A program made the position numbers and the translations under genes. DNA of 19,964 bases, from assembly GCA_937968065.1 (NCBI GenBank), contig CALBUD010000001.1, positions 1 through 19,964 of the forward strand, given 5' to 3'. Origin of the DNA: Candidatus Iainarchaeum sp. Lineage in GTDB: Archaea > Iainarchaeota > Iainarchaeia > Iainarchaeales > CSSED10-239. A model generated the notes under the pieces. It was given only the letters and a program-made list of their open reading frames with translations, made no database searches and was not told the DNA's origin. Below are positions 7,965 to 19,872 of this stretch, in pieces. Numbering within the stretch: the first letter of the stretch is position 1; each line of letters opens with the position of its first letter.

Positions 7965-8894
7965 ATGGAAAATCAAACAAAAGAATATGACTTAGATATT
8001 TTAAAAAAAGCAGGAAAACTAAATTTTAAAACTCAAAAATTTGCACAAAAAATAATAAAGGTTGGTTGTGATCTTTCAAAAATAGGTCTTGAGATAGATA
8101 AGTTTATTTTAGATAACGATGCTGTTCCTGCCTGGCCTGTTAATCTTTCAATAAATAATGAAGCTGCTCACAACACCTATGATCTTGAAAACTCTGTTTT
8201 TTTAAAAGAAGATGATATTTTAAAAGTAGATGTTGGAGTTTCAATAAATGGAAATATTGCAGATTCAGCTCAAACAATTATTTTTAATAAAAAACATCAA
8301 GATTTAAAAGATGCAAGTTTAAATGCTCTCTTATCTGTTAAAAAAAAAATATTAGAAGATTATAAATCTTTAAAAATATCAGATATTGGAAAAATAATAG
8401 AAACTGAAATTAAAAAAAAAGGTTTTCTTCCTGTTTCAAATCTTACAGGACATGCTATTGAAAGATATAAGCCTCATGCCTCTCCTTCTTTTCCAAATGT
8501 TTCAAACAACATAAATATTTTTCTAAAAGATATTAACCTTCCTTTTGCAATAGAACCTTTTGCATCAACAGGAACTGGTTTTGTAAATGAATCTGAAAAA
8601 GTAATCATCTTTGAACATGTAGAAGATAGACCTGTAAGAAACAAAGATGCAAAAAACATTTTAGAAGAAATTAAAAAATATAATGGTATGCCTTTTTCAG
8701 AATACTGGATAGGAAAATCATTATCCACTTTTCAAAGAAGATTTGCTTTAAGAGAGCTTTTAAAAAATGAAATTATTTCAAGCTATCCAGTCTTAATAGA
8801 TGTTAAAGATAGTTTTATCTCTCAAGCAGAAACAACCTTTATAATTGATGAAAAAGAAGGTGCTTTAGATTTGGTGAATATTGATGAATTATAA
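7965..8894 (+). CDS. map: methionine aminopeptidase, type 2 (archaeal M24 family)
   Basis: All five metal-ligand contexts are present in order: LKVDVG, NIADSAQT, LTGHAIERYK, FAIEPFAS, SQAETTFII. PAWPVNLSINNEAAHNT matches the archaeal MAP pattern. Confidence 0.9.
   Translation: MENQTKEYDLDILKKAGKLNFKTQKFAQKIIKVGCDLSKIGLEIDKFILDNDAVPAWPVNLSINNEAAHNTYDLENSVFLKEDDILKVDVGVSINGNIADSAQTIIFNKKHQDLKDASLNALLSVKKKILEDYKSLKISDIGKIIETEIKKKGFLPVSNLTGHAIERYKPHASPSFPNVSNNINIFLKDINLPFAIEPFASTGTGFVNESEKVIIFEHVEDRPVRNKDAKNILEEIKKYNGMPFSEYWIGKSLSTFQRRFALRELLKNEIISSYPVLIDVKDSFISQAETTFIIDEKEGALDLVNIDEL
8873..8877 (+). promoter_or_regulatory. Shine-Dalgarno-like GGTGA inside the map 3-prime end, 6 nt upstream of ATG 8884
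   Basis: Read directly. It implies translational coupling, with an 11-nt overlap between map and the next gene. Confidence 0.45.
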
Positions 8895-9858
8895 AGAAGT
8901 TTTTAATAAAAGAGGACTTTTAAAAATGTCTTTAATATCTGCATCAATAATTATGTGGATGTTTTTTTATACTTCTTCAAATATTTCAATTAACTCAATA
9001 ATCATCTTTGATCTTCCAAGAATAGTCACAACCATTTTAACTCTAGACTTTTTGTTTTTTCTTTTATTTTTTCCAATAACCACAGCAATTTGTATAGCCT
9101 TGTCTGTCGGAAAAGACAAACATGTTGATCTTTTAGAGATATTTTTAGGTATAACTGTTGGTTTTTTAGCCTCTTTTTTATTATTTACATTCTCATCTAA
9201 CTTTTTATTATTTGCAATGTTTTATCTAGTATCTCATCTTATCTTATCTATTCTAACTTATAATAAATTTAAAGATAGAGGTAATCTTACAACTCTTGCA
9301 AATTTTGCAAATTCAAAAATAGTTCTTTTAATATGTCTTTCTTTGTTTTTAACAGTTTTTTTAATAATTCTTCCAAATCAAGCAAGCTATTCTGAAAAAA
9401 TGAAAGTTGGTCTTGTAAATCTTTTTGTTGGAGATGATATTAGTAATTGGCTTGGCACTTCATATAGCATAAGTAAAGCAAGCACAGTTTCTGCTGTAAA
9501 CTTTATAACAGAGAAAGAAGAATACCAAAGATTAAAAAACATACAGAATACAGATGTTTATAATTATATAGATTTTATGGAAGATTTAAAAAAAGAGGTT
9601 TCTGAAAAAACCTCAAAAGAAGAAATTCAAAGAATATATGCAAATCTTGATTCTTTAGAAGTTAAAAATAATATTTATCATACAATTTCAAATATGCCTT
9701 TAATGATTGTCTTTAATCAATTTTTTGCATTGTTTTATGCAATTATTTTTGCAACAGTTGCACAATTATATCTTTCAATTGCCTTTTCTTTAATAGGACT
9801 TTTATATGTTTATATTTTCTTTAGAGTTTTTTATGGAAAAAAAGAAAAAGAGGATTAA
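8884..9858 (+). CDS. hypothetical polytopic membrane protein (N-terminal TM bundle, about 100-aa soluble loop, two C-terminal TMs)
   Basis: The track ORF starts at TTG 8881; I prefer ATG 8884 on SD spacing. Hydrophobic segments occupy the first ~170 aa and the last ~55 aa. No GxGD or other catalytic motif seen. Confidence 0.6.
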   Translation: MNYKEVFNKRGLLKMSLISASIIMWMFFYTSSNISINSIIIFDLPRIVTTILTLDFLFFLLFFPITTAICIALSVGKDKHVDLLEIFLGITVGFLASFLLFTFSSNFLLFAMFYLVSHLILSILTYNKFKDRGNLTTLANFANSKIVLLICLSLFLTVFLIILPNQASYSEKMKVGLVNLFVGDDISNWLGTSYSISKASTVSAVNFITEKEEYQRLKNIQNTDVYNYIDFMEDLKKEVSEKTSKEEIQRIYANLDSLEVKNNIYHTISNMPLMIVFNQFFALFYAIIFATVAQLYLSIAFSLIGLLYVYIFFRVFYGKKEKED

Positions 9859-9871
9859 AAAAAGATTATAT

Positions 9872-11182
9872 ATGAAAAAAATATTTTTAATTATTGGCTT
9901 TTTAATTTTACTATCTTCTCAAATATTCTCTTTATCTTTATTTGGTGCTCAAGATATTTCAAAAAAATATCTTTCAGAAAATGAAATGATAGATACTTTT
10001 ACACAACCAAAAATATCTTGTGAAAATCAAGATTATTTTGTAATACCAATAATTAATTCTTTAGGAGAACCTGTTCTATTTATTCCAATTTCTATAAAAG
10101 ATTCAGAACTTTATATAAGTAAAACAGATTCATTTAACATAAAGCTTATAAAAACTGAATATCTTTTAAAAGAACTCATAAATTCTGATCCAAATAACTA
10201 TTTATCTTCTCAATTAATAGATAGGTTTGATTCTTTAATAAATGTTCTCAATTCTAAAAAGGCACAACTTGAAGGTCTTTCAAACAAAGGATATTCTTTT
10301 GATGTAAATGATAAATTAACGATAACTACAAACAATTTAGATAATTTAATTTCTTCTTTAACTATTTTAAGAGAGAATCTAAATCAATTAATAATAAATC
10401 AAAATTCTTTTTTATTTTCTCCTGATTGTGATGACACCTCTTCTCTTTTAGTTTCTTTTGAAGATTCTTTTAAAGGATATAATGAACTTTCACAAATATC
10501 TCAAAATTATCTTCAATCAACAGATCAATTAATAACAGCAATTGTTTCTGATGAATCAATACCTTCTCAGGACACTTCAAGTATTATCTCAATAGCATCA
10601 GCTCCTCAAAATATAACTTCTCAAATAAACTATATTTCTGAAAGATTATCTTCTACAAGTTCTTTTTATTTAAAAATATCAAATAACCTTAAAGGTTCTT
10701 TAGGAGATCAAAAAATAAAAATACATGTTGATAATTTAGTTTTAAGAAAAAATTATGTAATTTTAAAAGATCTTTATGAAAAATATGATTCTTCTTTTCC
10801 AAACTATAGCAACTTAGAGGCTGTTATTCAAACAATTTTAAATCCAGAATATAGATTTTACTGGAAAGAGATAGAAGAAGTAAATAATATTCAATCTTTG
10901 TATAACGATATTAAAGAACATTCTCAAAAAGCTCAATATTCTCAAGCAATTTCAAAAACATCTATTTTAAAAACAAAATCTTTAAAAGTTTTAGAAGCTG
11001 GTTTCAATGATCAAGAAACAGAAACTGATTGGTTTTATTATATTTCTATTGGAGTTATAATTATTATTTTAATTATCTTTTTAATAATTTTAAGAAAAAG
11101 AGGGTTTTCTAAAAAAAAGTTTTCAAAGAAAAAAACTTCTAAAAAAGAAACTGATGTTTTTAATTTTGAAGATCCTTTTTAA
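9872..11182 (+). CDS. large secreted type I membrane protein (signal peptide, S/N/L-rich helical ectodomain, C-terminal TM, basic FSKKK-repeat tail)
   Basis: The track ORF opens at 9806 and overlaps the previous gene. The in-frame ATG 9872 gives a classic signal peptide, MKKIFLIIGFLILLSSQIFSLSLFGAQD. The C-terminal TM is WFYYISIGVIIIILIIFLIIL, followed by RKRGFSKKKFSKKKTSKKE. Confidence 0.6.
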   Translation: MKKIFLIIGFLILLSSQIFSLSLFGAQDISKKYLSENEMIDTFTQPKISCENQDYFVIPIINSLGEPVLFIPISIKDSELYISKTDSFNIKLIKTEYLLKELINSDPNNYLSSQLIDRFDSLINVLNSKKAQLEGLSNKGYSFDVNDKLTITTNNLDNLISSLTILRENLNQLIINQNSFLFSPDCDDTSSLLVSFEDSFKGYNELSQISQNYLQSTDQLITAIVSDESIPSQDTSSIISIASAPQNITSQINYISERLSSTSSFYLKISNNLKGSLGDQKIKIHVDNLVLRKNYVILKDLYEKYDSSFPNYSNLEAVIQTILNPEYRFYWKEIEEVNNIQSLYNDIKEHSQKAQYSQAISKTSILKTKSLKVLEAGFNDQETETDWFYYISIGVIIIILIIFLIILRKRGFSKKKFSKKKTSKKETDVFNFEDPF

Positions 11183-13182
11183 TTTTTAAAATTTTCTTTT
11201 TGTTTATAATCTCTTAAAAATTTATTAAACTCAACATAATCTTTTGGAACTTTTTCAACAAGTTCTAAAATAAATTTAGTTCTGTTTAATATTATTTCAG
11301 ACATTCTTACTTTTGATATGTTATGTTCAGTACAAATTTCTTTTAAAACATCACTATTATAAACAATTGGAAGTTCTTTTGTAAAAAGATCACTTTGAGA
11401 GGTTACGCTTTTTTCTTTAAATTTATCTATTGATTTATAAATAACATTATATTCTATTTTATTATCTTTTTTATTAAATCCTTTAATCTCATCAATTTCT
11501 TTTATTTCTCTTTTATTTTCACCAATACCTGCAAAACCAGTTACAACAACAATATCAAGACTTGTTAAAAGTGAAGGATCTAAAGAGATTGGTGGTGTTG
11601 TTATTCTTGTAATTAAACTTTCTGTACTCTTTGAGTGAACTGTAGATAAAGAAGAGTGACCAGAAGCCATACCCTGAAACATTAAAGACATTTCTTCTCC
11701 TCTAACTTCACCAATGATTAAATAATCAGGTCTTTGTCTGAATGATTCTTTTAAAAGATCATTCATTGTTATTTCACCATATTTTTTTCCTGTACTATCA
11801 GGTGGTCCAAAACCAGGTCTTGTTATTTGTGGAATCCAATTTTCAAGTAAAAGATTAATTTCTCTTGTGTCTTCAATTGATACAACTCTTTGTGCTTCTG
11901 GGATAAAAGAAGAAATTACATTTAAAAGTGTTGTTTTTCCACCAGCTGTAGGCCCTATAAGAACCATATTTTTTTTAAACTCAATTAATGTCCAAAGATA
12001 TGCAACAATCTCTGGTGTTACAGTTTCTGATTTTATAAGATCAACTGTGGTTAAAGGTTTTTGAGGAAACTTTCTAATTGTAAATGTAGGTCCTCTAGTT
12101 GAAACATTTGAAGTTAAAGTTGCATTTACACGAGAACCATCTGGTAAAATAGCATCTAAAAGAGGAGAGGCATATGAAACATAACTTTTACAAAGATGTG
12201 CTATTTTTATAACAAATTGTTGAAGTTCATTTTCTGTATTAATAGATATATTTGTAACTATGTGTCCATATTTTCTATGAACTATAAAAATAGGTATACC
12301 TATACCATCACACTCAATATCTTCAATTAATGGATCATGCATTAATGGTTCTATCTTATCAAGTCCACTTACCTGTCTCATTATATAATATACTATTTTT
12401 TCTTTTTTTTCTTTATCAAGTTTTACTTTATTTTTTGTAAATATTTTTTCAATTAAAGTATACATTTGATTTTCATCATTAAGGTCTGATAATGAGATTT
12501 TATTTATTAAAGTATCTCTAGTATTTTTTAAAACTTGTTCTTCTTCTTTTGTAAGTTCTGGTTCTGCAACAACATATGTTCTTCCATTATTATTTTCTTT
12601 TATGAAAGCATATGCAAAACCATGTATAAGCACTTGATAATTTTCAGGAAGTAGTTCTTTTGGAGGTTCAAAAACAGGTTTCGCAATTTCTAAAGATTCT
12701 TTTTTAGCTATTTTGTTTAATTCTTTTTTATCTTCTTTAAATGTAAAAATTTTTGAGAAAATACTTGCTCTGTCTTTTTTAACAACTTTTGAAACAGGTT
12801 TTTCTTTTCTTTCTTCAATTACAGGTTCTATTTTCTTTTCAATAACTTTTTCTTTAACTTTAGTTGGTTTTTTAGAAAATAGTTTTTTAAAGAAAGAAGG
12901 CTTTTTAATTTTATAAATAGGTATTTTTTTAAAATCTAGTTCTTTTGAAAATTCAGATAATAGGTTATTTAACTCTATAAATTCTAATATTTCTTTTTGA
13001 TTTTTCTTTTTAAAATTAGAGTATAATTTTTTTTCTTTAAGTTTTAAAATAGCGTCTTTTTTAGAAATTTTTCCTAATAAAAAATTTGAAATAATTTTTT
13101 CTTCTTCTTTATCTTCTTCAATTTTTTGAAGTATTTCTATTTTATTTGTTATTTCTTTTGTTTTTAAAGAAGAAAAAATCAT
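11179..13182 (-). CDS. type II/IV secretion-family ATPase (archaeal FlaI/ArlI / PilB-like type IV filament assembly ATPase) with long N-terminal extension
   Basis: Walker A GPTAGGKTT (nt 11929..11955), Asp box RVVSIEDTREI, Walker B PDYLIIGEVRGEE, His box SGHSSLSTVHS. The N-terminal domain pattern YVVAEPELTKEE is typical of archaeal members. Residues 1-177 are K/E-rich and have no counterpart in the canonical family. Confidence 0.9.
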   Translation of the reverse strand: MIFSSLKTKEITNKIEILQKIEEDKEEEKIISNFLLGKISKKDAILKLKEKKLYSNFKKKNQKEILEFIELNNLLSEFSKELDFKKIPIYKIKKPSFFKKLFSKKPTKVKEKVIEKKIEPVIEERKEKPVSKVVKKDRASIFSKIFTFKEDKKELNKIAKKESLEIAKPVFEPPKELLPENYQVLIHGFAYAFIKENNNGRTYVVAEPELTKEEEQVLKNTRDTLINKISLSDLNDENQMYTLIEKIFTKNKVKLDKEKKEKIVYYIMRQVSGLDKIEPLMHDPLIEDIECDGIGIPIFIVHRKYGHIVTNISINTENELQQFVIKIAHLCKSYVSYASPLLDAILPDGSRVNATLTSNVSTRGPTFTIRKFPQKPLTTVDLIKSETVTPEIVAYLWTLIEFKKNMVLIGPTAGGKTTLLNVISSFIPEAQRVVSIEDTREINLLLENWIPQITRPGFGPPDSTGKKYGEITMNDLLKESFRQRPDYLIIGEVRGEEMSLMFQGMASGHSSLSTVHSKSTESLITRITTPPISLDPSLLTSLDIVVVTGFAGIGENKREIKEIDEIKGFNKKDNKIEYNVIYKSIDKFKEKSVTSQSDLFTKELPIVYNSDVLKEICTEHNISKVRMSEIILNRTKFILELVEKVPKDYVEFNKFLRDYKQKENFKN

Positions 13183-13206
13183 ATTTCATCAATATTCCCT
13201 ATAAAA

Positions 13207-13554
13207 TCAATTTTTTTCTTTTATTTCAGCACTATTATCTAGTTCTGTTTTTTTATTATAAAGATCTTTTAGGATATTAAGTTTATCACTTACATCGTTA
13301 ATCATATCTGCAATCTCATTCCAAATAATTTTTCTTTGATTTGTATTATATTCAAGATTTTTTTGATTAACTTCTTGTAAAGTTGCATAAGTAAATTTTG
13401 TAATTTCTTCTTTTTCAAGTTTATCTTTAGTTTTTTTAATTTCTTGTGAAATTGTTTCTTTGTGTTCCTCAAGAGCTCTTAAAATCTCTAACTTTGCCAC
13501 TATAGAATTACAATTTGTTGAAATTGTACCAATATTTTCTTTTATTTCGTTCAT
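13207..13554 (-). CDS. hypothetical small soluble coiled-coil protein immediately upstream of the ATPase
   Basis: 115 aa. ATG lies 8 nt downstream of AGGTG (plus-strand 13563..13567). Heptad-like charged sequence with no TM and no Walker motif. A 24-nt gap separates it from the ATPase start. Confidence 0.55.
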   Translation of the reverse strand: MNEIKENIGTISTNCNSIVAKLEILRALEEHKETISQEIKKTKDKLEKEEITKFTYATLQEVNQKNLEYNTNQRKIIWNEIADMINDVSDKLNILKDLYNKKTELDNSAEIKEKN

Positions 13555-13562
13555 ATTTTTAA

Positions 13563-13567
13563 CACCT
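13563..13567 (-). promoter_or_regulatory. Shine-Dalgarno-like AGGTG for the 115-aa gene
   Basis: Plus-strand cacct, which reads AGGTG on the minus strand, 8 nt before ATG 13554. Confidence 0.5.
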
Positions 13568-13635
13568 TCTAAATAATTTTCATAAATATATTATAAATTA
13601 TTAGTTCGTTTACTTTATAAAGCTTTCTTTTTTAA

Positions 13636-14097
13636 TTATTGTGTGTGTACCATTTTTTCTTTATTGTTGTATATCTCTATATAGTATTTAAGATTTTCAG
13701 CTCTTAAAATTTCAAAAAAACATTCCCCAAAACTAATATCTTCAAAAACATCATCTTCAGAAAGAGTAATTGTATTATTATCTTCTATGATGTCATAATC
13801 TTCTTTAAGATAATTACTTAGATAATAATTTTCTTCTCCGTCATAAACCACAACACAGATTTTACTACTATAGTTATTTGATTTAATATAATCTACAAAA
13901 GAAGAATTTAAAAGATCTAAACTTTCTTCAGAAAGCTCATTTTCAACTAAATATTTTATTTCATTTTTATAATTATTAATTATTTTTTGAGCTTTGTTTT
14001 CTTGAAAGTTAATATTTTTTGAAAGTAAGAATAACATTGTTGTAAATATCATTATAAAGATAACAATTATAATATATGTAAATCCTTTTTCTTTCAT
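13636..14097 (-). CDS. type IV pilin-like / FlaF-FlaG-like small protein with class III signal-peptide-like N-terminus
   Basis: The track ORF starts at TTG 14118. The in-frame ATG 14097 lies 4 nt downstream of AGTGA (14102..14106) and gives MKEKG-FTYIIIVIFIMIFTTMLFLL: a short basic leader, then K-G, then a hydrophobic helix, resembling the prepilin G/FT(L)I motif. The remainder is soluble and beta-rich. Confidence 0.6.
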   Translation of the reverse strand: MKEKGFTYIIIVIFIMIFTTMLFLLSKNINFQENKAQKIINNYKNEIKYLVENELSEESLDLLNSSFVDYIKSNNYSSKICVVVYDGEENYYLSNYLKEDYDIIEDNNTITLSEDDVFEDISFGECFFEILRAENLKYYIEIYNNKEKMVHTQ

Positions 14098-14101
14098 TTT
14101 T

Positions 14102-14106
14102 TCACT
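14102..14106 (-). promoter_or_regulatory. Shine-Dalgarno-like AGTGA for the pilin-like gene
   Basis: Plus-strand tcact, 4 nt before ATG 14097 on the minus strand. Confidence 0.45.
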
Positions 14107-14108
14107 TT

Positions 14109-14480
14109 TTATGTCCAAATCAATATATTTAATGTTTTATGACTATCAAAAAAATAATAGTTAACTGCATAAACAGGAAGATTTTCAGGAATTGTTTCTC
14201 CAAAAGTTAAACAATTTTCACTCTCTTCTAAAAAATCACAAAGTTTTACAGAATATTTTAAATTTATATGTGTATAAAAAGAATTATAGATTGCTTCAAC
14301 ATTATTTTCAGAAACACTCTCTCTAAAATCATTTTCTTGTGCTTTAAGATTTATAACATCATAGGTTTTATCTAAAAGTGTTTTCTCTTTATAATCATTG
14401 TAGGTATAACTATTAAATAAAACTAACATAAACAATATAAGAATCATAATAGCTATTATAGCTTCAACAGACTTTATCAT
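14109..14480 (-). CDS. small protein with pilin/FlaG-like N-terminal hydrophobic helix
   Basis: 123 aa beginning MIKSVEAIIAIMILILFMLVLF. The hydrophobic helix starts at residue 5 and carries a Glu at position 6, reminiscent of the pilin +5 Glu. There is no canonical K/R-G/A cleavage site. The soluble C-terminal domain is about 95 aa. Confidence 0.5.
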   Translation of the reverse strand: MIKSVEAIIAIMILILFMLVLFNSYTYNDYKEKTLLDKTYDVINLKAQENDFRESVSENNVEAIYNSFYTHINLKYSVKLCDFLEESENCLTFGETIPENLPVYAVNYYFFDSHKTLNILIWT

Positions 14481-14494
14481 AATTATTTCAAAAT

Positions 14495-15469
14495 TTACTT
14501 TAATAAACCATATAGCATATTTTCAACTATAGAATAATATTTAGCTTCATCATCATTTTCTATTAAATATTCTGGAGGAAGAGCATAATAGGCAACTCTA
14601 TTAGAATTACTTAAAACAATTAATGGAAAGACTCCATCAGAACCATAAGAGGTTTCTTGATCTGAAAAAAGTCTTGATCCATAATCAAGTTTTAATGGAG
14701 TTGTTATAGGTCTTAAAGTTTCAATAATTGCAAAATCATCTCTTACTTCAAGAAAACTTCTAAGTCCATAGACAATAGAATGATCTGAAGAAGGCACTAA
14801 AACTCCGTTATTTGTAACTGGCCTTTTAAATTCTAAAACTATTCCTGAATATTCAGAAACTGTTTTTTTTTCACATTCTTTAACTTCACAATAGTTTTTA
14901 AGATAGGTAACTCCTAAAAAATCATCAAATCTTATCATATAATTATCAGCATTTAATCTTGCCCATCCACTTACAAAGTTTGAATCAAAAGAACCTTCAA
15001 TATCTCCTTTTGTTAAATATTGATCACTCTGTGTTTCAAGTTCAATTCCAGCATCTCCAACCCAGACAAGTCTTCCTCCTTTAGATACATAGTTCATAAA
15101 CATTTCAAGCTTTGGAGTTGATATTTTTCTTGATCTTGTAACTATTACTAAAGCTTCACTTTTAAGTTTTTCTTCACTAAGATAATTAATATTTTCTAAC
15201 CTAACATTCATCCCAATTATCTTATTATCTTTTATTGTTTTTTCAAGAAGATATGGATTTCCAAGTCCTTCTGTATCATTAGGGTTATAGACTATAAGAA
15301 TGCTTGGTTGTTGTTTACCTGTCATTAATGTTTGAGTTCCCCAATATAAAGAACACATGCCAGGAACAGATCTACATCTCAGGGTTCCTGCCCACACCAT
15401 TAGATAAAGTAAAATAATTATTAATAACACTATTGTTATAATTTTCCAAATAAGTTTTTTTTTAATCAT
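14495..15469 (-). CDS. N-terminally anchored (or Sec-secreted) extracellular protein with two Cys pairs
   Basis: 324 aa. MIKKKLIWKIITIVLLIIILLYLMVWAG is a signal anchor or signal peptide. Cys pairs occur at TLRCRSVPGMC and NYCEVKEC. The central stretch ALVIVTRSRKISTPKLEMFMNYVSKGGRLVWVGDAG weakly resembles flavodoxin/GATase1-like stack domains; this is tentative. Confidence 0.6.
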   Translation of the reverse strand: MIKKKLIWKIITIVLLIIILLYLMVWAGTLRCRSVPGMCSLYWGTQTLMTGKQQPSILIVYNPNDTEGLGNPYLLEKTIKDNKIIGMNVRLENINYLSEEKLKSEALVIVTRSRKISTPKLEMFMNYVSKGGRLVWVGDAGIELETQSDQYLTKGDIEGSFDSNFVSGWARLNADNYMIRFDDFLGVTYLKNYCEVKECEKKTVSEYSGIVLEFKRPVTNNGVLVPSSDHSIVYGLRSFLEVRDDFAIIETLRPITTPLKLDYGSRLFSDQETSYGSDGVFPLIVLSNSNRVAYYALPPEYLIENDDEAKYYSIVENMLYGLLK

Positions 15470-15524
15470 ATTTTATCTTTCTCTTTACATAAATATTATA
15501 AGAGTAAGTTATTTAATAGTTTCC

Positions 15525-15544
15525 TATATATTAATATATATTAA
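15525..15544. promoter_or_regulatory. perfect 16-bp palindrome TATATATTAATATATA (15525..15540), also a tandem 10-mer tatatattaa x2 (15525..15544), in the divergent intergenic region
   Basis: Read directly. It lies between the divergent starts at 15469 (minus) and 15557 (plus) and is a candidate pair of back-to-back TATA boxes. Significance is limited by the AT-rich background. Confidence 0.3.
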
Positions 15545-15556
15545 TGGTGTTATTTT

Positions 15557-15721
15557 ATGAAATTAAAACAAATGAAAAATACAAATCAAGGTCCAAGTAG
15601 TGTAATTGGAATAATGAAATTTAATGAAAGCATGGGTGGATATAAACTATCCCCTGAAATGATTATTGGTTTATCATTAGGTTTTGTTGTAGTTATATTA
15701 ATTTTAAAAATGTTTATTTAA
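15557..15721 (+). CDS. secG: protein translocase subunit Sec61 beta (archaeal SecG)
   Basis: Not in the ORF track (54 aa). Manual translation gives MKLKQMKNTNQGPSSVIGIMKFNESMGGYKLSPEMIIGLSLGFVVVILILKMFI. This fits the archaeal Sec61beta pattern: an S.(A/I)G(L/I)..(Y/F).(D/N)E block, then a conserved Pro, then one C-terminal TM. GGTG sits 7-8 nt upstream of the ATG. Confidence 0.75.
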   Translation: MKLKQMKNTNQGPSSVIGIMKFNESMGGYKLSPEMIIGLSLGFVVVILILKMFI

Positions 15722-17547
15722 TTAGGTTTTATTAAAACCTTTACAATTTCTTCTTCTCCATTTTGATTTAGATATTTTGAGATTCTTTCAAATAATTTAA
15801 AATTTCCTACAAATCCATAATTTCCAATTTCAATATTTTCTTTATTATTAAAAATATTTATATAATAATCATCTTCATTATCTTCATTATTTATGTTATA
15901 ATCTTGTATTTTTTCATATGTTATTAATGTTTCTTTTTCTTTATAAAAATTAACAATTGGATTTTCTTGTATTTCTTCTCTAATTCTTGATTTAACAATT
16001 GTTTTTCTATCACAATCATATATTTTTAGATTTCCATTTGTAATCTCAATTAAACAATTTGTTTTTCTATTATTAATATCTAAAAAATTAAATAACAAAT
16101 ATTTATTTTCTAATTTATTGATTATTTGTATGTTTTGTTCAGTTTCAAATGATTTGTCTGAAAATAAAAGTGAATCGTTTATAGTTGTTACATTAATAAC
16201 ATTGTTTGGTATTCTGACCTCGTGATTTATAAGATCATCTTCACTTGTATTTTCAATTTCTAATCTATAAAGGTTATTTCCTAAATTATAAACAGTTACG
16301 TCTGGATTTGTTTGAGAGTTATAATCTTTTAAAAAAGAATCTTCTGGTTGAAATCCATCTGTTTTTTTAAGATAAATTGTTTTCATACTATTTTGGTCAA
16401 TATCCATATTTATCCAGATATAAAAAGATTCATCTTCTTCTATTTCATAATCATAATGATTTATTTGTAAGTCTTCTAAGATAATTTCAATTTCTTCATC
16501 TTCTTCTATAATTATTAAAAATTCAGGAGTGTTTGGAAAACCTATAAATTTATGTTCATTTAAAGAATTTTTTATAACTACAGGGTGATTTTCTTTTAAA
16601 GAATAGTTTAAAGTGTCTTGATAGTTAAGAGTTATTTTTCCAAAAGTTTCTCTATTATAAAATAAATCTATTTCAATATTATTGTTATCTATTAAAAAAT
16701 CATAATAATTAGTTTGAATTTTTGCATCTTCAATAAGTGAGTTATCAAAAAATAAAGTTAATCTGTCAATATAATGTTCTTGTTTATTTTTAATAATTAT
16801 TTTTCCTGAGTTTATAGAACTTTGTGTATTATTATTTATTTGATAATCATTTATCTTACATTCAGCCTCTCCTAAAAAATTACTTTTAAAATTAAAATTA
16901 ATATACCAATAATCATCTAAATTAACATCTACATTATCAATTAGATAAAGTCCACTTATATTTTTGTCATACAATTTTAAATTATTTTCTTTTAGTTCAC
17001 ATAAAGAATAATTATCATTATCTTGATAATTAAAATAAATATTTACATCCACCGGTTCAATTATATATTCTCCAAAAATATTTGAATAATTTTGTTTACT
17101 TTCAATAGTAGTGTCTTCAAAAGCATAAGCTTCTCCTTCAAAATTAATTATCTCTCCACTAATAATTTCTATATTTTTAAGATTATTAGTATCTAAAAAA
17201 GATTCTTTAAAAATATTTGTTTTTGTTGGAATTTCTAAAGAATTAAAATTATAAAATTTAGAGTTATTTAAAATTGTTCCATAAAGATAATCATCTTCTA
17301 TAACATAATTACTATTTGCTCTTCCATAATTATTATCTAATAATAAAAGATAAGTTTGATTATAATTACTATCTGTATAAAAATTATAAATAATTATGTT
17401 ATCTATTAACTTTGAAAAAACTAAATTTGAAAATTGTGCATCTTCTTGAAAAGAAGTTTCTGGTAGAAATTTAGGGATGGCTGTAATTACAGCTAAAATA
17501 ACAAAAACAAATATTACAAAAGAAACTATCCAGTCTATATGCTCCAT
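15718..17547 (-). CDS. large N-terminally anchored Asn/Ile/Tyr/Asp/Glu-rich extracellular protein, no recognisable family
   Basis: 609-aa uninterrupted ORF. The N-terminal helix is MEHIDWIVSFVIFVFVILAVITAIPKF. The remainder is hydrophilic and beta-prone. Starts 12 nt after the stop of the upstream 491-aa gene. Confidence 0.65.
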   Translation of the reverse strand: MEHIDWIVSFVIFVFVILAVITAIPKFLPETSFQEDAQFSNLVFSKLIDNIIIYNFYTDSNYNQTYLLLLDNNYGRANSNYVIEDDYLYGTILNNSKFYNFNSLEIPTKTNIFKESFLDTNNLKNIEIISGEIINFEGEAYAFEDTTIESKQNYSNIFGEYIIEPVDVNIYFNYQDNDNYSLCELKENNLKLYDKNISGLYLIDNVDVNLDDYWYINFNFKSNFLGEAECKINDYQINNNTQSSINSGKIIIKNKQEHYIDRLTLFFDNSLIEDAKIQTNYYDFLIDNNNIEIDLFYNRETFGKITLNYQDTLNYSLKENHPVVIKNSLNEHKFIGFPNTPEFLIIIEEDEEIEIILEDLQINHYDYEIEEDESFYIWINMDIDQNSMKTIYLKKTDGFQPEDSFLKDYNSQTNPDVTVYNLGNNLYRLEIENTSEDDLINHEVRIPNNVINVTTINDSLLFSDKSFETEQNIQIINKLENKYLLFNFLDINNRKTNCLIEITNGNLKIYDCDRKTIVKSRIREEIQENPIVNFYKEKETLITYEKIQDYNINNEDNEDDYYINIFNNKENIEIGNYGFVGNFKLFERISKYLNQNGEEEIVKVLIKPN

Positions 17548-17559
17548 ATTTATTCAAAA

Positions 17560-19035
17560 TTATTCTACAGTTATTGTAAGATTGTTTGTAATAATGTTTG
17601 TTTCTTCCATTCTAAATGGATGTTTGTACTCCACAACAATATTACACATTCTAATATTATTTATAAGATTACCTATAAGGTTAGGATCAATAGCACTAAC
17701 ATTTACTAAAATTTCTGGTTTTGTATTTCTATTAACTTTCATATTTAAAAGTGCATTTTCAGATATGAAAATAAAATTATTACAATCTTTTCTAATAGGA
17801 TCAAGATCTAAAACTTCAATTGAAGCAATATCTATATCAATTGTACTTTTATTATCAAGAGTTAGTCTTAATATTTCAACATTTGTGACATTATTATTCA
17901 CATCATACTTTAGTTTAACATCTGTTTTATTTAAACTTGTTGTAAAACTTATGTTTGGTTCTTTAATAGTTATTGTTATTGGAATTTCTTTTACTTCTCT
18001 AAAAACAGAACTATTAAATATTAATTTTCCTTCTAAACTATCATCTCTTGCAGTCTGTGGAACTGATATTGATATACTTTTTGTTTCATTTTTAGACGCA
18101 TCTACAAATATGTTTCCTAAAGGATATGTAAACCAAGAATTTACATCTTCATTATTGTTACTTGTAATTTCTAAAGATAAAGTTAAATCAGGAATTGAAA
18201 TTTTATTTCTGGAATTATTTATTGTTATGTTATAATTTTTATTTTCTCCACTTTTTATTTCTCCAGATAAATTTCCTGTAATAGGTACGTTTGGTTCTTC
18301 TATAATTTCAAAATTTATTTTTTTTTCTTGTTCTTTATATTTTACTCGTACACTAATGTTATTAGTTTTCTTTTTAGTATCTTGCACAATATATCTTAAA
18401 CTTATTTTATCTTCTGTTAAAGGATATAATAAAGCATCTTGTTTACTTATCGGGTCGTTATAAAAATCAACAGTTATAAAATCCCATTCTTTAATATCTC
18501 CCTCTATAATTAAATCATCTACATTATAAGTTGTTGTTTGAGAGGTATTTTCATAATAAATTTCTAAAATTGCTGTTTGTCCAACATATACTTTTTCAGG
18601 AAAAACAATATTCTTAATATTAATAGGAATATTTTTTTCTAAAGTTACTGTTTCAAGTTTTATTTTTGTGCTTTTAAGATCAATTTCTTTTTTTAATTGA
18701 TTATATCCAGTTGCTTGAACACTATAATGATAATTTCCTTTTTTTATTTTTGTAATTTCGTTATTTGATAAAGTTTTAATCACGTTTGTAATCATTGGAT
18801 CTTTTGAAATTCTAATAACTGAAGGAATCACATCTCCTTCTGTGTTCTTAACATCAAAACTTACTTCTACTTGATTTAAAAATAAAAAACTAACGGCATA
18901 ATAGATTCCAAAACCAATAAGCAAAATAACTAAAATAACTGTTATCATCTGATTATTGTGTTTATTTGGTTTATCTTTATAACTATCTGAATAATAACTA
19001 TTATTTCCTGAAAAAGGATCAAAATCTTTACTCAT
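17560..19035 (-). CDS. bitopic membrane protein: ~29-aa cytoplasmic N-tail, one TM, ~430-aa ectodomain of Ig/PEGA/CARDB-like beta-sandwich repeats
   Basis: 491 aa. TM is MITVILVILLIGFGIYYAVSFLFL. KGNYHYSVQATGYNQLKKEIDL resembles the PEGA/carboxypeptidase-regulatory-like pattern, and PEKVYVGQTAILEIYYENTS resembles CARDB-like domains; both are pattern-level resemblances only. The start codon directly abuts the upstream stop (TAAATG). Confidence 0.65.
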   Translation of the reverse strand: MSKDFDPFSGNNSYYSDSYKDKPNKHNNQMITVILVILLIGFGIYYAVSFLFLNQVEVSFDVKNTEGDVIPSVIRISKDPMITNVIKTLSNNEITKIKKGNYHYSVQATGYNQLKKEIDLKSTKIKLETVTLEKNIPINIKNIVFPEKVYVGQTAILEIYYENTSQTTTYNVDDLIIEGDIKEWDFITVDFYNDPISKQDALLYPLTEDKISLRYIVQDTKKKTNNISVRVKYKEQEKKINFEIIEEPNVPITGNLSGEIKSGENKNYNITINNSRNKISIPDLTLSLEITSNNNEDVNSWFTYPLGNIFVDASKNETKSISISVPQTARDDSLEGKLIFNSSVFREVKEIPITITIKEPNISFTTSLNKTDVKLKYDVNNNVTNVEILRLTLDNKSTIDIDIASIEVLDLDPIRKDCNNFIFISENALLNMKVNRNTKPEILVNVSAIDPNLIGNLINNIRMCNIVVEYKHPFRMEETNIITNNLTITVE

Positions 19036-19872
19036 TTATTTTACCTCATTTGCTTTTGATAAAGCATATCGTGTACTTAAAAGTTCGTCTTTAAGTTCTT
19101 TTATAAGTTCTAATGCAATTTTTTCTTTTTCATTATTACTTCTGTTAATTTCATTAACATCGTTATTTAATTTTTTAATAACTCTATACATTTCTGTAAT
19201 TTCATTCTCAACTTTTATTAAATGAACATTAAGTAATGTTGAATTTTTTTCATTAATTTTTATTTTTTTAATTAATTCATTTTCAAGATTAGTTACAAGT
19301 GATTCTTTTGCTTTTTCTTTTGCTGAAAGCCATTTATAATCTTGTATTTTTTTAGTAAGCTCTCTTATTGAGTTTTCTTTTTCACTAATTATTCTTAATA
19401 GTTCTTCTATTGATTTTTTTTGAGTTAAAATATTTAAATATTTATGTTTTATTTTTTCTTTAGCATCTTCTACAAAAGAATTAAATAAATTTATTTCGTT
19501 TTTTATTTCTTCTTCTAAATCATAGAATATTTGTGGTCTTGTAATTGCTTCTTTAATATTTATTAACTCGTGATTTATTTCTTTTTTGTTTATTTCAAGA
19601 AAAATTTGAGAGTTAATTTTATTTGATATCATTAAAAAATTTTGATAAAAAAGATCCATTTTAGACCCAATTAATTCTGAGGAATACTGTATTGCAGTAT
19701 ATTTATTAATTTCTAGTATTTTTCTTGCAAGAAGATCTATATTTTCTTTTAAATAGTTTAATTTTTCAATAAGTTCTTTTTTTTCTAGTTTATATAAAGG
19801 AGTTGACATTTCTCTATAAATCTCTCTTGATTTTAATAGAACTTCATCTAAATATTCAAGTATATTTTTCAT
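19036..19872 (-). CDS. soluble all-helical coiled-coil protein, first gene of the three-gene module
   Basis: 278 aa, rich in K/E/I/L/N with long heptad-like stretches. No TM and no nucleotide-binding motif. Its stop abuts the ATG of the next gene. Confidence 0.6.
   Translation of the reverse strand: MKNILEYLDEVLLKSREIYREMSTPLYKLEKKELIEKLNYLKENIDLLARKILEINKYTAIQYSSELIGSKMDLFYQNFLMISNKINSQIFLEINKKEINHELINIKEAITRPQIFYDLEEEIKNEINLFNSFVEDAKEKIKHKYLNILTQKKSIEELLRIISEKENSIRELTKKIQDYKWLSAKEKAKESLVTNLENELIKKIKINEKNSTLLNVHLIKVENEITEMYRVIKKLNNDVNEINRSNNEKEKIALELIKELKDELLSTRYALSKANEVK

Follow-up and report, generated by a model that had tools for sequence, protein, structure and literature searches.

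We examined three consecutive minus-strand genes, here called g1, g2 and g3, in a 19,964-nucleotide (nt) stretch of Candidatus Iainarchaeum sp. DNA (assembly GCA_937968065.1, contig CALBUD010000001.1); the whole stretch is referred to below as the window. The original prediction treated the three genes as a single translationally coupled module that might bridge the membrane as a scaffold and that was tied to a nearby secretion ATPase. Comparison with more distant genomes instead favors a reading in which the apparent trio consists of two juxtaposed units: a g1-g2 pair found across the phylum, and g3, which is specific to the window's clade and goes with an adjacent pilus-like gene block. We assign this reading a probability of roughly 45%. 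The window has a GC content of ~22% and encodes archaeal PolB, aIF-2B, FtsZ, Spt5, L11, and methionine aminopeptidase; its host belongs to the DPANN archaea, in the phylum Iainarchaeota (Diapherotrites).

To follow gene linkage, we took one genome per GTDB species, used an alignment of a longer form of g1 (described below) as the query, and examined 80 loci of 103 relatives. Neighboring genes were detected with hidden Markov models (HMMs) and jackhmmer on the six-frame open reading frames (ORFs) of these 80 loci, absence being scored within 10 kb. Of the 80 species-level loci, 61 carry a same-strand g2 homolog downstream of the long-form g1. Among the 19 loci without a same-strand downstream g2, most contigs end within 4 kb, and one has g2 in divergent orientation. 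By contrast, neither g3 nor the FlaI-like ATPase was detected in any of the 80 other loci, and the same holds for p324, p123, p160, p115, and Sec61-beta, which adjoin them in the window. Homologs of g1 and g2 thus stay linked rather than occurring singly, whereas g3 is not linked to the pair beyond the window's clade. The association of the trio with an ATPase holds only within one clade, and the proposal of one three-gene module tied to a secretion ATPase is not supported. The g1 and g2 families themselves appear to be near-universal in Iainarchaeota, with g1-family loci found mostly in records named 'Candidatus Iainarchaeum' or Diapherotrites, including Ca. Iainarchaeum andersonii and Ca. 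Forterrea. In a mirror-tree analysis with partial correlation, g2 distances follow those of g1 best (r 0.82-0.85, versus 0.58-0.75 for housekeeping neighbors).

The boundary between the two units is visible within the window's clade. The gap between g2 and g3 measures 0-20 nt in the window and in loci L004, L005, L095, and L096. In L001, an opposite-strand gene for a Wzx-type flippase (11480-12934) lies between the two genes, and three further loci carry glycosylation islands of 8-10 kb in this position (L007, 12372->20846; L097, 1-9514; L101, 898-9904). These islands encode methyltransferases, glycosyltransferases of families GT1/2/4/9/17, a radical-SAM (S-adenosylmethionine) enzyme, a PMT_2-type transferase, and a flippase. 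Relatives thus carry a variable glycan-biosynthesis island, from a flippase alone to 8-10 kb, at the place where only a 12-nt spacer parts g2 from g3 in the window (17548-17559), which speaks against a single three-gene module.

On its other side, g3 keeps constant company. Sec61-beta follows g3 in 13 of 15 related g3 loci, each time on the opposite strand and tail to tail with it, and the contigs of the other two end just after g3. The order g3, Sec61-beta, p324-p123-p160-p115-ATPase, p458-p325-methionine aminopeptidase is found in L001, L002, and L004-L006, and the order of g3, Sec61-beta, and the pilus-like block recurs in L094-L097, L100, L101, and L104, some of whose contigs end early. 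All 12 g3 homologs in a large protein collection belong to the window's clade, and a metagenome scan added more distant homologs with 24-30% identity. The gene is confined to this clade and always adjoins Sec61-beta and the pilus-like block where the contig continues. Encoded on the plus strand, Sec61-beta stands between the trio and the ATPase operon and keeps the two apart.

Within the window, the three ORFs are laid out as first described. The sequence TAAATG at 19038..19033 leaves a spacer of 0 nt between g1 and g2, and 12 nt (17559..17548) separate g2 from g3. The tight spacing had been taken as a sign of a complex. Elsewhere in the window, nearly all same-strand spacers are small (-53, -14, -10, 6, 14, 14, 24, 26, and 36 nt), however, so spacers of 0 and 12 nt are at the background level and are not on their own evidence of a complex. 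We also note a 252-amino-acid (aa) plus-strand ORF antisense to g2 and g3 (17477-18235), which we take to be almost certainly spurious, given the conserved homologs and confident fold predictions of the minus-strand genes.

The claim of translational coupling survives in part. The gap between g1 and g2 is 0-14 nt in L001-L008, and the two genes are contiguous in L095 and L096. In the 80 wider loci the modal gap is 450-700 nt, usually with an opposite-strand gene of 138 aa in between, which is missing from the window and from L001-L008. Coupling of g1 and g2 is probable in the window's clade, where the spacer of 0 nt is accompanied by a Shine-Dalgarno-like motif within g1, but not elsewhere, and it is a derived feature of this clade. 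The 138-aa protein has no Pfam match and shows a flavodoxin-like sequence pattern.

The architectures first assigned to the three proteins proved right, and so did the absence of a recognizable family: scans of all window proteins gave no Pfam or NCBIfam match above threshold for g1, g2, or g3, PDB searches likewise gave none above threshold, and a literature search found no paper on these families. The g1 product is, judging from its sequence, a soluble cytoplasmic coiled-coil protein. It has no hydrophobic segment or transmembrane (TM) helix, and its composition includes 2 Pro and 1 Gly. The main period of its hydrophobic pattern is exactly 3.5 residues and stands out most at residues 106-190 and 211-266. 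Identity to its 41 homologs ranges from 39 to 77%, and it evolves much more slowly than g2 (74-77% versus 49-61% identity when the same genomes are compared). Upstream of distant g2 genes lies a gene for a helical protein of 340-400 aa, the long form of g1. The alignment of this long form (42 sequences) is collinear with the short form across 259 columns (hhalign 97.8%, E 7e-13), and the g1 of the window is thus a C-terminally shortened member of one Iainarchaeota-wide family. Profiles of the short and long forms gave no PDB match beyond noise, and g1 has no Pfam relative. The N-terminal region of the long form (residues ~7-98, for example in L010 45-1079) bears the motif W..LNR.GF. Its best PDB match, an SPX domain (5ijj), is borderline (E 4.5e-4) and covers the N-terminus only; the short g1 of the window conserves neither this region nor the motif.

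The g2 protein has a confident tandem immunoglobulin (Ig)-like fold. Its AlphaFold2 model (mean predicted local distance difference test score, pLDDT, 86.8) contains four beta-sandwich domains, and the single TM helix near the N-terminus predicts a bitopic protein with its N-terminus in the cytoplasm. The short tail ahead of this helix is conserved. In 17 close homologs (33-61% identity, all ~490 aa), the tail residues D6, P7, and F8 never vary and F5 hardly does, and two Cys are invariant as well; more widely, the tail is 18-52 aa long, and an aromatic-acidic-x-Pro/Ser motif stands near the N-terminus in 53 of 76 family members. On the strength of sequence conservation, this tail implies some cytoplasmic partner of g2. 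Across the 76 diverse members, C418 and C464 of the last domain are the sole invariant residues.

When 1.84 billion cluster representatives were searched with a g2 profile, 161 g2-family proteins emerged at E <= 1e-3; among the matches listed, most are 480-530 aa long and align end to end. The protein of the window has no Pfam match of its own at E <= 0.1, and an exact look-up found no identical record of its sequence. Weak to moderate Pfam matches do occur among 30 homologs (CarboxypepD_reg in 16, NPCBM_assoc/NEW3 in 13, FixG_C in 12, PEGA in 7, and CARDB in 3), and the first domain bears a G-x-Y...GY signature. Foldseek against the PDB gave generic tandem-Ig/ASH matches only (among them ciliary central-apparatus proteins, titin, and CFA/I pilins), from which no homology can be drawn. 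The gene occurs once in nearly all loci examined and has diverged to ~20% identity across the phylum. The combination of tail, TM helix, and four domains in ~490 aa defines a distinct family that appears to be restricted to Iainarchaeota.

The g3 model (pLDDT 80.1, predicted template modeling score 0.75) comprises a TM helix at residues 2-23, a disordered linker, and an all-beta region at residues 48-542. Its domains resemble concanavalin-like jelly-rolls and superpose on known members of that fold, with Foldseek E-values of 5e-7 to 1e-4, domain TM-scores of ~0.6, and 8-12% identity. The matches include clostridial-neurotoxin Hc domains (E ~3e-6), CBM66 (4b1m, TM-score 0.64-0.65), GH16 (3d6e, TM-score 0.64), calreticulin, and a levanase C-domain. 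A g3 sequence profile gave noise only against the PDB, and no catalytic or sugar-binding motif was identified in g3 at 8-12% identity to these matches. Among homologs, the N-terminus MEHIDWIVSF is nearly invariant, the C-terminus EIVKVLIKPN is strongly conserved, and four Cys are invariant. The earlier description of g3 as giant and Asn-rich was overstated: the protein has 609 aa and 14.4% Asn, versus 9.0% for 13 window proteins, and the excess arises largely from the AT bias of a 22%-GC genome.

These features suggest how the two units might work. Under the two-unit reading, an oligomeric g1 would dock on the cytoplasmic g2 tail (acidic/aromatic, FDPF here); beyond its one TM helix, g2 would extend outward as a rod whose PEGA-like domain is followed by three Ig-like ones and which contains a conserved disulfide pair. 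Together, g1 and g2 could form a membrane-spanning scaffold that positions or organizes a g2 surface array, and in the window's clade their genes have become contiguous and probably translationally coupled. The membrane-anchored, lectin-like g3 protein belongs with the adjacent pilus-like block and the variable glycan-synthesis island; a role as a glycan-binding adhesin or an accessory of the type-IV-filament-like apparatus is plausible and would be the most likely one. The trans-membrane scaffold of the original prediction thus stays a reasonable hypothesis for g1 and g2 only. A more specific version, in which a g1 coiled-coil polymer grips the N-terminal peptide of g2 and couples the cytoplasm to the envelope as an Iainarchaeota-specific scaffold, joined by p325 in some lineages, seems to us unlikely as it stands.

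Several observations weigh against the two-unit reading. The 138-aa opposite-strand gene fills the g1-g2 gap in about 58 loci (for example L010 1084-1497 (-) and L047 11104-11520 (-)), so g1 and g2 are not co-transcribed there. Housekeeping genes are the commonest neighbors: a 328-aa RMMBL protein accompanies g1 in 71 of 83 loci versus 66 of 83 for g2, and GatC/A/B, AspRS, ProRS, Nop5, fibrillarin, and an HhH-GPD glycosylase belong to the same block. Distances in g1 follow those of gatA better still (r 0.95), so the co-evolution signal between g1 and g2 is not specific. For the other unit, the start of g3, MEHIDWIV, is not that of a canonical class III signal peptide, since it contains no basic residue and has none of G, A, or S at -1, and the orientation of g3 is ambiguous by the positive-inside rule, with an acidic MEHID N-terminus and K/R after the TM helix. 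Much of this suits a serious rival in which g1 and g2 are syntenic neighbors without a functional link. Here g1 would be a housekeeping gene and g2 an independent surface protein in a region that is rarely rearranged, and the 0-nt junction would reflect compaction after loss of the 138-aa gene; the slower evolution of g1 and the small spacers usual across the window fit as well. We nevertheless consider this explanation somewhat unlikely. The same-strand order of g1 and g2 is kept phylum-wide despite the divergence of g2, the conserved g2 tail calls for a cytoplasmic partner, g1 is the best correlate of g2 among the genes compared, and in one clade the genes have come to be contiguous, with the ribosome-binding motif of g2 inside g1.

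Two further alternatives involve all three genes. According to one, g1, g2, and g3 make up a single complex across the envelope that works with the FlaI-like ATPase machine as an alignment or stator-like subcomplex of a type IV filament, comparable to PilM/N/O or FlaF/G/X. The entire array from g1 through Sec61-beta and the ATPase to p458 and p325 is conserved in the window's clade, and a pilus-like block without a recognizable platform protein must have unrecognized components. Moreover, a homolog of p325, the sole polytopic membrane protein of the block, directly follows g2 in 9-10 other species (L044, L047, L058, L063, L065, L068, L071, L074, and L078; in L032 it lies ~3 kb downstream). This complex is nonetheless improbable, given that the ATPase, the pilin-like genes, and g3 are missing within 10 kb from all 80 other g1-g2 loci, that insertions part g2 from g3 in relatives, and that the convergent Sec61-beta gene splits the trio and the ATPase operon into distinct transcription units. 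Housekeeping genes are equally syntenic within the window's clade, g1 is not actin-like, and p325 shows no signal of a T2SSF platform. According to the other alternative, g2 is the main, S-layer-like envelope protein, g1 its cytoplasmic organizer, and g3 a lectin on the glycosylated layer. The presence of g2 once in nearly all loci examined would fit, as would its fast evolution, its ectodomain of a PEGA/CARDB type common in archaeal surface proteins, and the insertion of glycosylation islands beside it. Archaeal S-layer proteins, however, are highly abundant, carry a signal peptide that is cleaved off, form a lattice through dedicated domains, and are mostly anchored at the C-terminus. The g2 protein, with its N-terminal signal anchor and cytoplasmic tail, is at 491 aa small for an S-layer protomer and matches no S-layer family in the Pfam and NCBIfam scans, and we regard this last alternative as very unlikely.

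Table 1. Coordinates of g1-g3, their elements, and the neighboring genes in the window.
Feature	Coordinates	Strand	Description
g1	19872..19036	-	278 aa, helical coiled-coil protein
Shine-Dalgarno-like motif of g2 (GAGGT)	19047..19043	-	within g1 3' end, 7 nt ahead of g2 ATG; read from sequence
g2	19035..17560	-	491 aa, bitopic; PEGA/CarboxypepD_reg-like domain, then three Ig-like (CARDB/NEW3/ASH-type) domains
g2 N-terminal tail	18955..19035 (aa 1-27, minus strand)		disordered in model; F-D-P-F motif
g2 TM helix	18877..18951 (aa 29-53, minus strand)		from AlphaFold2 model
g3	17547..15718	-	609 aa, N-terminal TM helix and concanavalin-like jelly-roll beta domains
Sec61-beta	15557..15721	+	54 aa; convergent with g3, 4-nt overlap of g3 stop; homologs with weak PF03911 match
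Type-IV-filament-like operon	11179..15469	-	co-conserved with g3
p324	15469..14495	-	signal-anchored; always first gene of pilus-like operon
p123	14480..14109	-	pilin-like; N-terminus MIK[ST]|[VL]EA
p160	14118..13636	-	pilin-like; N-terminus KG|FTYIII
p115	13554..13207	-	115-aa cytoplasmic coiled coil
FlaI-like ATPase	13182..11179	-	667 aa; Pfam T2SSE 1e-31; NCBIfam FlaI 1.5e-91, below cutoff
p458	9806..11182	+	signal peptide, long Ser/Asn-rich helical ectodomain, C-terminal TM helix
p325	8881..9858	+	polytopic, ~7 TM helices, 100-aa soluble helical insert, no known family

The block that accompanies g3 has the appearance of a reduced type-IV-filament locus (Table 1). The N-termini of p123 and p160 are conserved and fit the class III signal peptide pattern, and neither a T2SSF platform protein nor a prepilin peptidase is recognizable anywhere in the window. 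As the sole candidate for the missing platform, p325 was considered as a hidden T2SSF protein and rejected, with no T2SSF signal even at E <= 10 and no Pfam or PDB match. Its gene is overlapped by p458 by 53 nt, and p458 is conserved in the window's clade only. Between Sec61-beta and the pilus-like operon, 87 nt (15470-15556) remain as their divergent promoter region. The p324 protein carries a strictly conserved Cys motif, WAGT.RC[RK]S.PG.C, after its signal anchor and has a weak ABC_transp_aux/GldG-like match (E 0.0065). For p160, the listed TTG start is probably too far upstream; homologs start with M(K)KxKG|FTYII, in favor of an internal ATG at 14097. Translation from there would give a protein of 153 aa, with 11 nt between p123 and p160, whereas with the listed start the two genes overlap by 10 nt. 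The FlaI-like ATPase has a Lys-rich N-terminal extension of ~190 aa.

Iainarchaeota are uncultivated DPANN archaea, and to our knowledge almost nothing is known of their envelope or of how their cells make contact. Although g1-g3 are uncharacterized and fairly ordinary cell-surface genes, the analysis defines two families, g1 and g2, that appear near-universal in the phylum, with a confident fold for g2, and it groups the lectin-like g3, together with a glycosylation island of variable content, with a reduced type-IV-filament locus. If g1 and g2 do form a scaffold, they would represent a phylum-specific envelope system, for instance one that organizes the surface coat or a cell-cell attachment site, built from families without characterized relatives. 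The case also calls for caution, as zero-length spacers and gene order shared among close relatives are no proof of a module in compact genomes; the trio dissolves when more distant genomes are compared.

A comparison with known systems reveals partial parallels for each unit. In the PilM-PilN pair of bacterial type IVa pili, as in GspL-GspM of type II secretion systems, contiguous genes encode a cytoplasmic actin-like (ASKHA) partner and a bitopic partner with a short N-terminal docking peptide. The g1-g2 pair likewise sets a gene for a cytoplasmic protein beside one for a bitopic protein, and g2 has a conserved short N-terminal peptide. The two systems differ in that g1 is an all-helical heptad coiled coil without an actin-like fold, the g2 ectodomain consists of four Ig-like domains rather than a coiled coil and a ferredoxin-like domain, no sequence match connects them, and a T2SSE ATPase lies within 10 kb in none of the 80 other g1-g2 loci.

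The archaellum offers a second parallel. FlaF and FlaG are beta-sandwich proteins with an N-terminal TM helix, FlaX forms a coiled-coil ring and has an N-terminal TM helix, and the fla operon holds archaellins together with FlaH, FlaI, and FlaJ. The window resembles this arrangement in having anchored beta-sandwich proteins and a coiled-coil protein beside a FlaI-type ATPase. However, g2 has four domains and a cytoplasmic tail, g1 has no TM helix, unlike FlaX, no archaellin, FlaH, or FlaJ is encoded in the window, and g1-g2 occur without the ATPase within 10 kb in the 80 other loci.

Archaeal type IV filament loci more broadly encode an ATPase, pilin-like proteins, and adhesin-like accessory proteins, and DPANN members are reported to have reduced systems (PMC4858521; bioRxiv 10.64898/2026.04.22.720090). 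The block beside g3 shares the ATPase, short proteins that resemble pilins and have N-termini of class III type, and, in g3, a large beta-rich adhesin-like protein. It differs in the platform protein and prepilin peptidase that could not be recognized in it, and in the head of g3, which is concanavalin-like rather than PilY-like or hook-like. In the class III signal peptide of type IV pilins, a basic n-region and a small residue at -1 precede a hydrophobic helix that begins directly behind the cleavage site. Neither g3, which has no basic n-region or G/A/S at -1, nor g2, with its 27-aa tail, shows this pattern.

At the level of domains, g2 resembles PEGA, CarboxypepD_reg, and CARDB proteins in the signature of its first domain and in the mostly weak matches of its homologs to these families; its modeled fold is consistent with them, and the protein of the window itself matches none of them at E <= 0.1. 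In g3, a TM helix at the N-terminus is joined to domains that are only 8-12% identical to members of the concanavalin A-like lectin/glucanase superfamily, yet their jelly-rolls superpose on those of CBM66, GH16, and clostridial neurotoxin Hc-N.

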